Positions 24,055 to 41,588 of a DNA stretch of 64,000 nt are shown one piece after another; position 1 is the first letter of the stretch; each line of letters opens with the position of its first letter. The DNA is taken from NCBI GenBank assembly GCA_009772965.1, contig WPAF01000001.1:78639-142638 (forward strand), given 5' to 3'. The notes beneath the pieces are model-generated. The model had not been told where the DNA came from. It saw only the letters and a list, made by a program, of their open reading frames with translations, and ran no database searches. Both the position numbers and the translations under genes were made by a program. The DNA is from Candidatus Saganbacteria bacterium. Lineage in GTDB: Bacteria; Margulisbacteria; WOR-1; XYC2-FULL-46-14; WPAF01.

Positions 24055-25107
24055 TTATTCCAACATGCCTTCTTGAATTACATCTTCTTTATCAATATCT
24101 ACTTTTACTTTTCTGCCAACAATCAAGCCCAGATTCTTTGGTTCAATTCCGGTTCCAGGCCTGGTCATTTTTAGTTTCTCCCGACTCAACTGCTCACCTT
24201 TATTGATCCTGCATCTGGCTACAATACTTCTTCTTATTATCTTTCTGGCATCCAATTCCGCTTGAGACAAATTTCTTTGATAAGAGCCTAACGATTTTTC
24301 AACTTCTCTCACTGCTCTCACAAGTTCCTGCATGCCACTTGGTTCAAGTGCAAAAGGATGATCTGGACCTTCCATCTTTCGATCAAGAGTTATATGTTTT
24401 TCAATAATGCAGGCTCCCAAAGCTATGGAAGCCATTGCCATATAGTTATCAGGGCTGTGGTCAGAAAACCCTACCGGTAATCCAAAAGTCTTAATCAAGG
24501 TTACGATGTTCTTAAGATTTACCACTTCGGGATTGGGAGGATAACAAGATACGCAATGAAGCAGAGCAATTTGATCGTTTCCGTTCCTTAATATGGTTTC
24601 TACCGCTTCTTCTATTTCCCGTAAATAAGACATGCCGGTAGACAAAATAATAGGCTTTTTAAATTTAGCCAGCTCGCCTAAAAAATCCAAATAAGCAACA
24701 TCTATAGAAGCAATCTTAAAAACCGGAGGATCGAACTGCATGATAAACTCAGCATCCTTAATTGAGTGGACAGTAGAGAAAACATCCAATTCTTTATCCC
24801 TTGCATATTCAAACATTTCCTTAAACCATTCCCGCGGCATCAAAATCCGGTCTCTGGCAACCTCCCACCATGGCTGGTAGCCATAGTCCTTTTCATAGGC
24901 AACGTCACGGGTTGTAATTTTGCCGCTGAATACTTCTAATGGTTCATAAGTTTGGAACTTTATAGCATCAAAACCTGCATCCGATGCAGTATCAATCATC
25001 TTTCTGACAATTGTCTTGTCTAAATTATGATTAGAGCCTATCTCTGCAATAATATAGGTTGGATATTCTGGCTCGATTATTTTTTTATTGATCATTATTT
25101 TTTTCAT
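24055..25107 (-). CDS. Nonulosonic acid synthase (NeuB/PseI/LegI family; PEP condensing enzyme with SAF domain)
   Basis: 350 aa; YIIAEIGSNHN...AIKFQTY NeuB signature and C-terminal SAF-like region. Confidence 0.85.
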   Translation of the reverse strand: MKKIMINKKIIEPEYPTYIIAEIGSNHNLDKTIVRKMIDTASDAGFDAIKFQTYEPLEVFSGKITTRDVAYEKDYGYQPWWEVARDRILMPREWFKEMFEYARDKELDVFSTVHSIKDAEFIMQFDPPVFKIASIDVAYLDFLGELAKFKKPIILSTGMSYLREIEEAVETILRNGNDQIALLHCVSCYPPNPEVVNLKNIVTLIKTFGLPVGFSDHSPDNYMAMASIALGACIIEKHITLDRKMEGPDHPFALEPSGMQELVRAVREVEKSLGSYQRNLSQAELDARKIIRRSIVARCRINKGEQLSREKLKMTRPGTGIEPKNLGLIVGRKVKVDIDKEDVIQEGMLE

Positions 25108-25120
25108 TTATTACTCCTAC

Positions 25121-26128
25121 TCATTTCAATACTTCTTCTACTGCTTTTTTAATGTCTACGACTTGCGGCAAAACTGCATCTTCTAAAATTTTAGTATTTG
25201 CTATCGGCACATTTTTGGCGGCTACTCTTTTAACTGGTGATTCCAATAATTCAAAACCATCATTTATTACTTGGGCTGCCATCTCAGCGCCCCATCCATT
25301 AAACAATGTCCCTTCTTCAACAATAACAAGTCTTCCTGTCTTTTCGACTGATTCCAATATTTCTGGCATAGATGCTTTATTAATATAACTGGGAACAATT
25401 ATTTCCGAAGTGACCTCATCTTCCAATAGCAATTCATTCAACGCAACCGTCACCCAAGGTAACATACCACCATAGGTCAAAACTGTCACTTGATGTTCTT
25501 TAAAATCATTATTCGACAAAATAATGGTCTCATATTCATCTTTACTTTTTCTGGCAGAATAATCAAAAATATGTCCGTTCTCTAATTCATCAATTTCCCG
25601 GGTGTACAAAACCTTGTTTTCAATAAAAAGAACCGGATCATTATCTTCAATCGCCTTGATTAGCTGCTCACCAGGATCATGAAAGTGACTGGGCGCAATA
25701 ATCTTTAATCCTGGAATGCCTAAAAACAACTTTTCCAGAGTTTGACTGTGGGTGGGGCCATAGCCTCTACGCCCCCCCATGGGAGTCCTGATAACCATGG
25801 GAACTGTTACTTTCCCTTTATACATCCAACCAAATTTTGTTGCATGATTAATAAGTTGATCGGCACATAATGTCAAAAAATCCCCAAACATTATCTCAAG
25901 TATCGGTCTTATTCCCCTCATTGCTAAGCCAGCAGCTAAGCCAGTCAATGCCCATTCGCTCATGGGAGTATTTATAACTTGATCGGGATATTTCGTTGAC
26001 AAACCTTTTGTTATTTTAAAAGCTCCTCCATAAGGGTCACAGACATCTTCCCCAAGGAGGATAACATTCTTGTCTTTCTTTAATTTATAATCTAATGCCT
26101 GACTAATTGATTGTGCATAGGTAATCAT
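25121..26128 (-). CDS. ThDP-dependent 2-oxoacid dehydrogenase E1 beta-like subunit, pair 3
   Basis: 335 aa; ..NTPMSEWALTGLAAGLA.. transketolase-like pyrimidine-binding domain. Confidence 0.8.
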   Translation of the reverse strand: MITYAQSISQALDYKLKKDKNVILLGEDVCDPYGGAFKITKGLSTKYPDQVINTPMSEWALTGLAAGLAMRGIRPILEIMFGDFLTLCADQLINHATKFGWMYKGKVTVPMVIRTPMGGRRGYGPTHSQTLEKLFLGIPGLKIIAPSHFHDPGEQLIKAIEDNDPVLFIENKVLYTREIDELENGHIFDYSARKSKDEYETIILSNNDFKEHQVTVLTYGGMLPWVTVALNELLLEDEVTSEIIVPSYINKASMPEILESVEKTGRLVIVEEGTLFNGWGAEMAAQVINDGFELLESPVKRVAAKNVPIANTKILEDAVLPQVVDIKKAVEEVLK

Positions 26129-39495: not shown

Positions 39496-40609
39496 GAAGC
39501 TTAGCTATAACGTAATCCTGCTGCTCATCGGTCATTTTCGGATACATCGGTATTGACAAGCATTTTCTATAATATTTTTCCGCATTTGGACATAGCCCGC
39601 GCTCGTAACCGAGGCTCTGATAATACGGCTGTAAATAAACCGGTAAATAATGCACATTCACCAAAACACCAAAACTTCGCATAAAATCAAATACTTTCCT
39701 TCTGTTTTCAACCGAAACAACATAAAGATGATAAGAGGACAATACTTCTTGAGTTTCTTCAAATATATTAATTTCAGAAGAATCTTTAAAAGCATTAGTA
39801 TATTTCTTGGCTATTTTCCTTCTCCTTTCAACAAATTTATCGAGTTTTTTTAGCTGACTCATACCCAGCGCGCACTGAAAATCTGTCATCCGATAGTTCA
39901 ACCCTAATTCGTGCATCTCATAATACCAATCGCCTCCATTTTGATTTTTCATTATTTTTGGATCTCTCGTAATTCCATGCGTTCTAAACATCAAAAGCTT
40001 CTCATAATAGACTTCGTTATTTGTCAGGAGCATTCCACCCTCGCCCGTTGTTATATTTTTTACTGCATGAAAGCTTAAAACCGTCATATCCGAATACTTG
40101 CAGACCCCGATTTTTGATCCTTTGTATTCGGCGCCAAGAGCATGGCTGGCATCTTCAATTATCAACAGATCATTTTTTTCGGCAATTGCTTTTATCTCTT
40201 CAAGATCACAAGGTTGGCCAGCAAAATGGACTGGGATAATTGCTTTGGTTTTATTGGTTATTTTCTTCTTAATATTTTTTGGATCAATATTAATAGTGTC
40301 TTCTTGGATATCAGCAAATACCGGTCTGCCCCCGCAATACAAAATACAATTAGCCGAAGCGACAAAAGTAATAGGGGAAGTAATTACTTCATCTCCGGTT
40401 TTTATTCCGGCGGCAAAACAAGCCGCATGCAATGCAGCGGTTCCGGAACTAACTGCTACCGCATATTTAACTCCGCAATATTTTGCAACCTTTTTCTCAA
40501 ACTCGGCTATTCTGGAGCCTTGTGTTAGGTAATCCGAACGTAGCGCCCCAATCACCGCCTTGACATCTGTGCCATCAATCCATTGCATCGCGTAGGGAAT
40601 TTGCTTCAA
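39449..40609 (-). CDS. pseC: PseC-like DegT-family aminotransferase (UDP-4-keto-6-deoxy-hexose aminotransferase)
   Basis: 386 aa; ...LTQGSRIAEFEKKVAKYCGVKYAVAVSSGTAALH...GDEVITSPITF. Confidence 0.75.
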   Translation of the reverse strand: MKQIPYAMQWIDGTDVKAVIGALRSDYLTQGSRIAEFEKKVAKYCGVKYAVAVSSGTAALHAACFAAGIKTGDEVITSPITFVASANCILYCGGRPVFADIQEDTINIDPKNIKKKITNKTKAIIPVHFAGQPCDLEEIKAIAEKNDLLIIEDASHALGAEYKGSKIGVCKYSDMTVLSFHAVKNITTGEGGMLLTNNEVYYEKLLMFRTHGITRDPKIMKNQNGGDWYYEMHELGLNYRMTDFQCALGMSQLKKLDKFVERRRKIAKKYTNAFKDSSEINIFEETQEVLSSYHLYVVSVENRRKVFDFMRSFGVLVNVHYLPVYLQPYYQSLGYERGLCPNAEKYYRKCLSIPMYPKMTDEQQDYVIAKLRDVCERIESGCEKCD

Positions 40610-40613
40610 AGAT

Positions 40614-41588
40614 TTACTCCTTCAACATTTCTTGTAATTGTGGAACAGTTAACCATTGATTATTTGTGTTACTGCTGTAATAAAAATCTTCGGAAACCGA
40701 TTTTCCCTCCGCATGGTTTTCATTACTCCACCACTGAAACGCTGGTTGAATTACATAACAATCATCCAGCTCCTTTGTTTTTTTAGCATCGTCAGATGAA
40801 ATCATAACCTCATGAACCTTTTCTCCTGGTCTTATTCCAATGGTCTTGGTTTTAGTACCAGGAGCAATCGCTTTTGCCAAATCTATCACTTTCATGCTTG
40901 GAATTTTTGGTACAAATATTTCCCCACCTCTCATGCGTTCAAAACTTTTTATAACGAATCTAACCCCCTGTTCAAGGGTTATCCAGAATCTTGTCATGCG
41001 CGGATCAGTGATCGGCAACTCGCCTCCCTGTTTCGCCCTCTCCTTAAAGAATGGAACCACGCTCCCTCGGCTGCCAAAGACATTTCCATATCTGACAACA
41101 GAAAACCTTGTTTCGGCGTCTCCCGAATAAGAATTTGCTGCAACAAATAATTTATCCGAGCATAATTTTGTAGCACCATAAAGGTTTACAGGGTTACAAG
41201 CTTTATCGGTGCTTAAAGCTATGATCGCTTTTACCTTGCTACTAATCGCCGCATCAATAATATTCATAGCCCCTATGATATTAGTTTTAACCGCCTCGGA
41301 TGGGTTATATTCCATTGCCGGAACTTGTTTTAATGCCGCCGCATGAACAACATAATCAACCTTATGAAATGCCCGGTTCAATCTTTCCCTGTCCCTTACA
41401 TCACCGATAAAAAATCGCAGAATTTCTTCATGTGCCGCGAACTGTTGAGCCATTTCAAATTGCTTAAGCTCATCCCGGCTAAAAATGATGATTTTTTTGG
41501 GTTTGAACTCCTTCAGAACAATCGCCACAAATTTTTTACCAAAAGAGCCCGTCCCTCCCGTTACCAAAATCGTTTTATTATTAAACAC
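40614..41588 (-). CDS. pseB: UDP-N-acetylglucosamine 4,6-dehydratase (inverting), PseB/FlaA1/CapD family
   Basis: 324 aa; [17 protein letters not shown]...[11 protein letters not shown] signature. GTG start at 41586-41588, preceded by AAGGGAG (SD-like). Confidence 0.8.

Follow-up and report, generated by a model that had tools for sequence, protein, structure and literature searches.

How is the sugar amine acylated in a pseudaminic acid-type gene cluster in which no PseH acetyltransferase is recognizable and a set of pyruvate dehydrogenase (PDH)-like genes lies in its position? This question is raised by a locus of Candidatus Saganbacteria bacterium contained in a 64,000-nucleotide stretch of contig WPAF01000001.1, hereinafter the window (coordinates are positions in the window; L002–L030 denote the homologous loci compared). 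Saganbacteria are a non-photosynthetic sister lineage of Cyanobacteria that has no cultured member. The locus appears to encode a variant of the pseudaminic acid (Pse) pathway with a lipoyl-E1 module, that is, a 2-oxoacid decarboxylase (E1) and a chimeric lipoyl protein, in place of PseH. Our best explanation, to which we assign a probability of about 0.55 as a whole, is that the region is the center of a mosaic surface-polysaccharide operon, that it would make a CMP-activated 5,7-diamino nonulosonic acid via the pseudaminic route, and that N-acylation within this Pse-type operon would proceed from a lipoyl arm, independently of coenzyme A (CoA).

The pseudaminic-type core and the lipoyl-E1 module

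Almost every gene of the region lies on the minus strand, where 29 genes follow one another over 29.7 kb, from 41588 to 11852; the intergenic gaps are at most 36 bp from pseB (41588) to 15797, after which a single 259-bp gap is followed by three further genes. This tight packing bears out the ~30-kb single-strand operon proposed in an earlier interpretation made without database searches (the sequence-only reading), and the collinear presence of PseB, PseC, PseG, a NeuB-family synthase and a CMP-sugar synthetase was confirmed by hidden Markov model (HMM) and gene-order comparison. The core genes are as follows:

40614..41588, minus strand: PseB, inverting UDP-GlcNAc 4,6-dehydratase (TIGR03589, 544 bits, cut-off 407.75; Pfam Polysacc_synt_2, 362 bits)
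39449..40609, minus strand: PseC, UDP-4-amino-4,6-dideoxy-beta-L-AltNAc transaminase (TIGR03588, 522.7 bits, cut-off 423.5; DegT, 414 bits)
29754..30482, minus strand: CMP-nonulosonate synthetase (CTP_transf_3), divergent from PseF (Pfam CTP_transf_3, 78 bits; TIGR03584 PseF, 94 bits, cut-off 205.7)
28747..29757, minus strand: PseG, UDP-sugar hydrolase (TIGR03590, 167 bits, cut-off 153.55)
24055..25107, minus strand: NeuB-family nonulosonate synthase of a non-canonical clade (Pfam NeuB, 262 bits, and SAF)

PseB, PseC and PseG pass the curated NCBIfam equivalog cut-offs, and PseB is 58-84% identical to the PseBs of related loci. The PseG homolog retains the 'GFGHI' motif with His17, and its sole match in the Protein Data Bank (PDB) is Campylobacter jejuni PseG (3hbm), with no match to MurG, in agreement with its assignment as a UDP-sugar hydrolase rather than a MurG-type transferase. 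Accordingly, of the predicted pathway to a CMP-activated 5,7-diamino-nonulosonic acid, the Pse-type core stands, whereas the synthase and the cytidylyltransferase score under the Pse-specific cut-offs. The locus resembles the PseB-PseC-PseH-PseG-PseI-PseF pathway of C. jejuni and Helicobacter pylori in its PseB, PseC and PseG members, identified by HMM, and in the collinear NeuB-family synthase and CTP_transf_3 enzyme, but differs in the lack of a PseH GNAT, the position of the synthase outside the PseI clade, the low score of the cytidylyltransferase (94 vs 206 bits) and the many extra genes embedded in it. In the NCBIfam scan, none of the operon proteins matched the PseH models, and the 328-aa GNAT encoded after NeuB had no match at E<=0.001. 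Between PseG and the synthase, four genes make up the module:

27628..28710, minus strand: chimeric E2, 360 aa, consisting of a lipoyl domain, a linker, a peripheral subunit-binding domain (PSBD), and a PglD_N plus left-handed beta-helix (LbH) N-acyltransferase
26720..27631, minus strand: E1 alpha, subunit of a thiamine diphosphate (ThDP)-dependent 2-oxoacid decarboxylase (E1_dh, 200 bits; PDH_E1_alph_y, 286 bits, cut-off 394)
26103..26723, minus strand: LplA-type lipoate-protein ligase, catalytic domain only, 206 aa, between the E1 genes (LplA-B_cat, 89.5 bits)
25121..26128, minus strand: E1 beta, Transket_pyr plus Transketolase_C (PDH E1 beta subfamily, 239 bits, cut-off 321)

In the chimeric E2, the lipoyl domain comprises residues 4-78, with Lys45 as the lipoyl lysine, and matches Pfam Biotin_lipoyl with 37 bits. 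The PSBD (residues ~108-149) scores only 13 bits, below the threshold, against Pfam E3_binding; the assignment was settled by comparing a family profile of residues 104-147 with the PDB, which retrieved the solved PSBDs of PDH E2 proteins, 1w4i (E=6.3e-7), 4qoy_E, 2eq8_C and 7b9k (residues 326-367), the matches spanning E=6.3e-7 to 3e-4. The chimeric E2 contains no chloramphenicol acetyltransferase (CAT)-like 2-oxoacid_dh core; residues 152-360 are instead occupied by PglD_N (28 bits, cut-off 23.4) and the LbH domain (Hexapep). This C-terminal part of about 210 residues passes the NeuD/PglB/VioB model TIGR03570 (169 bits, cut-off 160.8), aligns over its full length with PerB (4ea7, 106 bits) and also with PglB-ATD and PglD, and contains His286, the equivalent of the catalytic histidine mutated in 4eaa and 4eab. 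It is thus like the PglD/PerB/PglB-ATD/NeuD N-acetyltransferases; the characterized members of that group, however, are stand-alone proteins or are fused to other sugar enzymes, use acetyl-CoA, and none has a lipoyl domain or a PSBD. In a set of 26 diverse homologs, E42, K45 and H286 do not vary. The AlphaFold2 model (pLDDT 89) consists of a barrel with Lys45 in a hairpin, a disordered linker, the two PSBD helices and the transferase.

The E1 subunits retain the ThDP motif GDGA...ENN and the GHS histidine (alpha) and the 'THSQ' histidine (beta), all of which are matched in alignments with the E1 of human and P. aerophilum; in the ligase, the catalytic lysine and the RRxGGGGAV motif likewise correspond to those of solved LplAs. 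Hence the PDH-like acylation module noticed in the sequence-only reading is real, comprising E1 alpha, E1 beta, the LplA-type ligase and the lipoyl-PSBD-LbH protein, but it had been taken for an accessory, whereas it sits in the PseH slot, where no PseH-type GNAT is encoded. It resembles 2-oxoacid dehydrogenase complexes with a heterotetrameric E1 (Gram-positive and mitochondrial PDH, branched-chain 2-oxoacid dehydrogenase and AcoABC) in the ThDP motif and lipoyl-acylating histidines of E1, in the E2-like protein with an N-terminal lipoyl domain, a flexible linker and a PSBD, and in the lipoate ligase. Unlike in those complexes, the CAT-like core is replaced by a trimer-type LbH nucleotide-sugar N-acyltransferase, there is no linked dihydrolipoamide dehydrogenase (E3), and the predicted acceptor is a sugar amine rather than CoA. 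E3 was found neither among the ~46 minus-strand open reading frames (ORFs) scanned across 697-51361 nor in eight Pfam-annotated foreign contexts. The nearest precedent for a swapped E2 core is AcoC, the catalytic part of which is an alpha/beta hydrolase; a match to PRK14875, cited here for AcoC, was obtained in the profile scan.

Judging by family membership, PseB would convert UDP-GlcNAc to a 4-keto-6-deoxy sugar, PseC would aminate C4, PseG would take off UDP, the NeuB-family synthase would condense the hexose with phosphoenolpyruvate, and the CTP_transf_3 enzyme would activate the product with CMP. The N4-acylation, normally performed by the GNAT PseH with acetyl-CoA, would be the task of a three-part machine. 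E1 alpha/beta is predicted to decarboxylate a 2-oxo acid (by default pyruvate because the nearest E1 family is PDH, but possibly another) and to reductively acylate lipoyl-Lys45 of the chimeric E2, whose PSBD would dock E1 and hold the arm near it. The beta-helix domain would then take the acyl group off the dihydrolipoyl arm and pass it directly to the 4-amine of the UDP-sugar, with His286 activating this amino group and without participation of CoA, and the acyl group would end up as the N7 substituent of the nonulosonic acid. The LplA-type ligase of the cluster would lipoylate the carrier, and a housekeeping E3 or another oxidant would have to re-oxidize the arm. PerB, PglB-ATD and PglD acylate the 4-amine of nucleotide sugars; there are LbH enzymes, LpxA and LpxD, whose acyl donors are thioesters bound to a carrier protein; and LbH enzymes, like E2 cores, form trimers whose active sites lie where subunits meet. 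Prediction of the acyl group from the active-site residues of E1 was considered and rejected as unreliable.

Distribution of the module and the source of the acyl group

A search of 5.8 billion proteins for homologs of the fusion, in which the best 120 matches were considered, recovered the lipoyl plus LbH architecture in 118 of the 120, representing at least 118 protein clusters. In the databases these proteins are labeled 'NeuD family' or 'hypothetical', with no informative name. E1 alpha/beta adjoins the fusion gene in 18 of the 19 informative genomic contexts, in three of which the E1 pair is fused into one protein or the lipoyl-LbH fusion is split; in a Planctomycetales locus (L002), no E1 gene was found at a distance of less than 10 kb from the fusion gene. 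Represented among the contexts are Planctomycetales, Synergistia, Hydrogenedentota, Pseudomonadales, Rhodospirillaceae, Bacteriovoracaceae, Nitrospiraceae, Omnitrophota, Chloroflexi-like bacteria and Gammaproteobacteria, and a NeuB gene is present within 10 kb of the fusion in 15 of 20. In the Omnitrophota locus L007, the fusion is split: the LbH part, E1 alpha and E1 beta have genes of their own, as does a stand-alone lipoyl-PSBD protein of 145 aa that shares 48% identity with the N-terminus of the window protein. Judged from sequence, this is a Rosetta-stone relationship. The E1 pair of the module (pair 1) is 42-75% identical to the E1s located next to other fusions.

This conservation bears on the possibility that the LbH domain is an ordinary acetyl-CoA-dependent substitute for PseH, the lipoyl-PSBD part being vestigial or serving only as a tether to E1 or E3, for local supply of acetyl-CoA or for regulation. 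Stand-alone relatives, PglD and PerB, do use acetyl-CoA, and two lipoyl-less LbH proteins, P0075 and P0106, are 63-64% identical to the C-terminal half of the window fusion. We nevertheless consider such a role quite unlikely, given that the lipoyl lysine, the PSBD signature and the adjacency to E1 are conserved over distant phyla, that the split version retains a free lipoyl-PSBD gene within the same operon, and that the window adds a dedicated lipoate ligase, none of which would be expected of a vestige.

In the window and in loci L017 and L030, the genes are arranged in the order PseB, PseC, PseF, PseG, E1 alpha, E1 beta, lipoyl-LbH, NeuB; no gene for a PseH-type GNAT adjoins the module, which therefore occupies the PseH position. 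In the metagenome locus L026, whose downstream genes match those of the window, the same slot holds an acyl system of FkbH, acyl carrier protein (ACP) and MBOAT, which makes this position a variable 'acyl donor' cassette. FkbH_N proteins recur together with small ACP-sized ORFs and MaoC dehydratases (13626-17035 in L014; 3198-8895 in L026); such sets fit glyceroyl-type N-acyl groups. At 12390-15692, locus L017 has another lipoyl-LbH gene, for a longer protein of 515 aa, and downstream of it genes for a PIG-L deacetylase and a further NeuB, which suggests two lipoyl-dependent acylations or two nonulosonic acids. In L029 (5906-9089) and in the P0039 context, an E1 alpha-beta fusion of 655-687 aa adjoins the lipoyl-LbH gene and there is no NeuB nearby, the neighbors in L029 being DegT, methyltransferase, GT2 (family 2 glycosyltransferase) and PMT_2 (GT-C) genes; therefore, the module also serves other amino-sugar pathways.

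The GNAT genes are the reason to consider an acyl-CoA intermediate, whereby the module would be an unconventional 2-oxoacid dehydrogenase, with the LbH domain replacing the E2 core and transferring the acyl group from lipoyl to CoA, and a GNAT (the 328-aa protein in the window, a PseH-like protein elsewhere) would then acylate the sugar. A GNAT gene directly follows NeuB in the window, and GNAT genes adjoin the module in L014, L015, L016 and L028. However, the window, L017 and L030 are without a PseH-type GNAT next to the module, and the fusion retains the PglD_N nucleotide-sugar domain and the catalytic histidine, which in PerB and PglD deprotonates the sugar amine. To our knowledge, no LbH enzyme uses CoA as the acceptor, and we regard this scheme as unlikely.

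Another role for the E1 subunits is brought to the fore by two more E1 alpha/beta pairs that are encoded, without a lipoyl carrier, on the minus strand of the window (7631-8551 with 6573-7631, and 2581-3552 with 1544-2584). Identity between these pairs is 40-43%, whereas with pair 1 it is only 30-34%; a C-terminal 'FKGPF' tail is present on the E1 beta subunits of both, and their genes (block 1544-10477) are interleaved with three SDR (short-chain dehydrogenase/reductase)/4,6-dehydratase-like genes and a gene for a B12 radical SAM enzyme (3573-5579, 668 aa), the fourth in the window. PDH-like E1 pairs attach a two-carbon branch derived from pyruvate to sugars in avilamycin and paulomycin biosynthesis (PMC4425429). 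If pair 1 worked like AviB1/AviB2, it would add such a branch to the 4-keto sugar made by PseB, and no N-acyl group would be formed. AviB1/AviB2 and Pau11/Pau12 are, like pair 1, E1 alpha/beta pairs inside sugar gene clusters, but they work without a lipoyl carrier. This description suits the pairs at 1544-3552 and 6573-8551, which, lying beside SDR genes, fit such a role and putatively resemble the AviB1/AviB2 logic for two-carbon branched sugars. Pair 1, in contrast, is always linked to a lipoyl-PSBD protein and, here, also to a lipoate ligase, and is only distantly similar to the lipoyl-less pairs, so that a branching function for it appears very unlikely. The catalytic histidines are retained in all three pairs, and their comparison therefore does not discriminate lipoyl-dependent from AviB-like pairs.

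Several points weigh against direct acylation from the lipoyl arm. The fusion family is known from sequence alone, and its LbH domain could still bind acetyl-CoA. The acyl group is not readable from the sequence, and if it is acetyl, the gain over acetyl-CoA is unclear. With no linked E3, the re-oxidation of the lipoyl arm is unexplained. In L014, L015, L016 and L028, which carry a PseH-like GNAT besides the module, the latter cannot be a mere replacement for PseH, and its target may be another amine; in clusters that combine a PseH-like GNAT with the frequent PIG-L deacetylase, the acyl groups placed on the two amines probably differ. Finally, the stereochemistry of the product is not secured because the synthase lies outside the PseI clade and its cassette, or the first three genes thereof, occurs away from Pse genes in L027 (see below).

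Notwithstanding these points, CoA-independent acylation from the lipoyl arm remains the explanation that we favor. With somewhat less than even confidence, we further propose that the module represents a new class of 2-oxoacid dehydrogenase-like machine, in which the E2 core is swapped for a nucleotide-sugar N-acyltransferase, providing CoA-free coupling of the oxidative decarboxylation of a 2-oxo acid to N-acylation of surface amino sugars in diverse uncultivated phyla. The acyl groups installed would probably be ones for which there is no CoA pool, for instance a glycolyl group derived from hydroxypyruvate or a propionyl group derived from 2-oxobutyrate. We infer a lipoyl-dependent sugar N-acyltransferase system that is widespread and undescribed: no paper linking lipoyl/E1 systems to N-acylation of nonulosonic acids or amino sugars was found, although absence in full-text searching does not prove novelty. 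The sole co-occurrence of the terms, PMC4875605, was discarded, 'lipoylation' being used there loosely for fatty acylation. If the proposal is correct, the role of the lipoyl swinging arm extends beyond central metabolism to that of an acyl carrier for glycan tailoring, providing a new link from 2-oxo acid pools to cell-surface chemistry. N-acyl variation on nonulosonic acids governs immune and phage recognition, and an unrecognized source of acyl groups affects the prediction of structures from gene clusters.

The NeuB-family synthase and its cassette

The synthase belongs to the NeuB family and, given its Pfam NeuB score, is not of the KdsA type. It is, however, not a canonical PseI. The scores against TIGR03569 (316, cut-off 400) and TIGR03586 PseI (295.7, cut-off 340.25) are both below the cut-offs; the best PDB matches are PseI 8h2c (185 bits) and SpsE (178 bits), compared with 127 bits for Neisseria meningitidis NeuB. 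In a neighbor-joining tree of 25 sequences (100 bootstraps; the references were solved structures and PGAP-labeled plasmid genes), the PseI clade is recovered in 100 of 100 replicates without the window synthase, which is set apart from the PseI, N. meningitidis NeuB and SpsE clades and groups loosely, with 18% support, with L002, L014b and L015. Thus the phylogeny excludes the synthase from these three clades but does not place it.

A database search recovered at least 120 clusters of this synthase clade from uncultivated lineages, with 54-74% identity. PGAP names them only 'N-acetylneuraminate synthase family protein', never pseI, and the automatic labels of JGI are 'sialic acid synthase SpsE' or 'N,N'-diacetyllegionaminate synthase'. 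The functional unit runs well past 24055, where the sequence-only reading had ended it, and NeuB heads a nine-gene cassette that is conserved elsewhere; the genes that follow NeuB in the cassette are:

23068-24054, minus strand: GNAT (328 aa)
22660-23067, minus strand: VOC/methylmalonyl-CoA-epimerase-like protein
21113-22654, minus strand: acyl-CoA ligase (AMP-ligase)
20344-21123, minus strand: IMPase-like phosphatase
19304-20347, minus strand: PdxA-like dehydrogenase
18490-19317, minus strand: LIC12133-family methyltransferase
17205-18464, minus strand: class III aminotransferase
15797-17212, minus strand: B12 radical SAM enzyme

The 259-bp gap separates these from the last genes of the unit:

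14302-15537, minus strand: C-methyltransferase-like protein
13599-14300, minus strand: PIG-L family de-N-acetylase
11852-13597, minus strand: LIC12162-like putative transferase (weak family match), the last gene of the unit

In L026 (10001-19255), NeuB and the eight genes after it are collinear with and 42-72% identical to those of the window, delimiting a large, uncharacterized NeuB clade with a nine-gene cassette of its own. In an Aminicenantes chromosome (L027, 10001-12468), only NeuB, GNAT and VOC are retained, far from any Pse genes; therefore, the synthase clade may have a role that is independent of the Pse route. PIG-L homologs adjoin the lipoyl-LbH gene in L003, L005, L016, L017 and L028. 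The enzymes encoded downstream of NeuB (GNAT, CoA ligase, epimerase-like protein, PdxA, aminotransferase, phosphatase, methyltransferases, B12 radical SAM enzyme and PIG-L) probably exchange or elaborate a second N-acyl group. With low confidence, we suggest that the cassette serves to synthesize and activate an unusual acyl group and to attach it to the amine freed by the PIG-L deacetylase. Action of the PdxA-like protein, the phosphatase and the aminotransferase on a 9-phosphorylated nonulosonate was also considered but judged unlikely for a 9-deoxy Pse-type sugar. The LIC12162-like protein, which is 38% identical to a PF27859 protein encoded after NeuB in the second Saganbacteria locus, L025, is a candidate nonulosonate transferase.

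A probable lipid-linked sugar branch and the flanking genes

Between PseC and the CMP-nonulosonate synthetase, the operon contains the following genes:

38506..39495, minus strand: GT2 polyprenyl-phosphate glycosyltransferase, ArnC/PgfS-like (NCBIfam ArnC, 197 bits, and PgfS, 184 bits, both below the cut-off)
37518..38609, minus strand: SDR NDP-sugar 4,6-dehydratase/epimerase-like protein (Pfam Epimerase, 153 bits; GDP_Man_Dehyd, 147 bits)
36401..37543, minus strand: second DegT aminotransferase, not PseC (DegT, 396 bits; PseC model, 251 bits, cut-off 423.5)
35732..36379, minus strand: class I SAM methyltransferase (Methyltransf_25/11/12)
34148..35725, minus strand: B12-binding radical SAM enzyme, 525 aa (Pfam B12-binding and Radical_SAM; no NCBIfam cut-off passed)
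31849..34131, minus strand: 760-aa polytopic membrane protein of a family without a Pfam model, found to have the GT-C glycosyltransferase fold
30479..31852, minus strand: B12-binding radical SAM enzyme, 457 aa, HpnJ/BchE-like

The sequence-only reading correctly listed the second DegT, the methyltransferase and the PDH-like module among the interleaved genes, but only two of its three B12 radical SAM genes lie within 24055-41588; the third (15797-17212) is inside the operon, downstream of that interval.

The second DegT, the methyltransferase, all the B12 radical SAM enzymes and the PDH module had been interpreted as decorating a single nonulosonic acid. They do belong to one tightly packed transcription unit, and B12 radical SAM genes recur in the nonulosonic acid clusters L005, L007, L016, L025 and L026. 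However, a 5,7-diamino sugar requires just one added amine, and the second DegT, the SDR and the methyltransferase are bracketed by the polyprenyl-phosphate GT2 and the GT-C transferase. In L025, the same bracket encloses a different deoxysugar set (FdtA, 2,3-dehydratase and GFO), in a cluster where PseB (84% identical), PseC (73%), GT2 (63%), GT-C (40%), the CMP-synthetase and PseG occur in the same order and the E1/lipoyl module is absent. Homologs of the second DegT adjoin GT2 and GT-C genes in L024 and L025. Decoration of a single sugar by the entire gene set thus has little probability: the retention of the bracket around other genes fits a separate, lipid-linked sugar, and the GT2-to-GT-C block (39495-31849), including the 34148-35725 radical SAM enzyme, most likely builds a separate undecaprenyl-phosphate-linked amino sugar rather than tailoring the nonulosonic acid. 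Homologs of the 457-aa radical SAM enzyme adjoin CMP-synthetase and NeuB genes in L005 and L025. C-alkyl decoration of the nonulosonic acid is a possible, putative modification.

The SDR is nearest to the dTDP-glucose 4,6-dehydratase and LegB models, under both cut-offs. The GT2 has two C-terminal hydrophobic helices (236-273 and 275-302), and E162, H202, S205, K348 and E478 are invariant in the GT-C protein. In the proposed branch, these transferases would load the modified amino sugar onto undecaprenyl phosphate and transfer it at the outward-facing side of the membrane; use of a polyprenyl-phosphate sugar donor by the GT-C protein is suggested solely by the neighboring ArnC-like GT2. The arrangement is reminiscent of ArnC/ArnT (and GtrB/GtrC-type) transfer in the GT2 with two C-terminal membrane helices that scores best against ArnC and PgfS, the DegT and the large GT-C-fold protein, but the latter has no detectable sequence similarity to ArnT or any Pfam family. 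The analysis thereby delimits a family of GT-C glycosyltransferases that is not covered by Pfam. The listed ORFs of the SDR, GT2 and PseC (37518-39495 area) have GTG starts and overlaps of 104 and 47 bp; translation, also that of the GT2, probably begins further downstream.

Two genes upstream of pseB point to the destination of the products:

41949-42620, minus strand: short Wzz-like protein
42633-44822, minus strand: Wza-type polysaccharide export protein, upstream of the Wzz-like gene
41864..41892, minus strand: match to the sigma-70-type promoter consensus, TTGACA, 17-nt spacer, TATAAT (12/12), ~275 nt upstream of pseB

Given the Wzz-like and Wza-type genes, the products are therefore destined for a surface polysaccharide, and the locus predicts an elaborate acidic one in Saganbacteria. 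The putative promoter at 41864-41892 is assigned solely by its match to the consensus. In the 360 bp that separate pseB from the Wzz-like gene (41589-41948) lies the remnant of an SDR epimerase gene, with the first 35 codons intact (41803-41696), the middle deleted and the C-terminal piece in a different frame; the promoter consensus is located just upstream of this remnant. Searched against Rfam for a leader RNA, this 360-bp region yielded no match. The GC content of the window is uniform (0.34-0.46) and so gives no sign of recent horizontal acquisition, which was considered and dismissed as unsupported. A DAO-family FAD oxidoreductase, not of the E3 type, is encoded at 44854-45975, between murE and the gene for the Wza exporter. 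At the other end, where the 29-gene unit gives way to the E1/SDR block downstream, a radical SAM/SPASM protein (10855-11820, plus strand) is encoded by the only sizeable opposite-strand gene in this part of the window.

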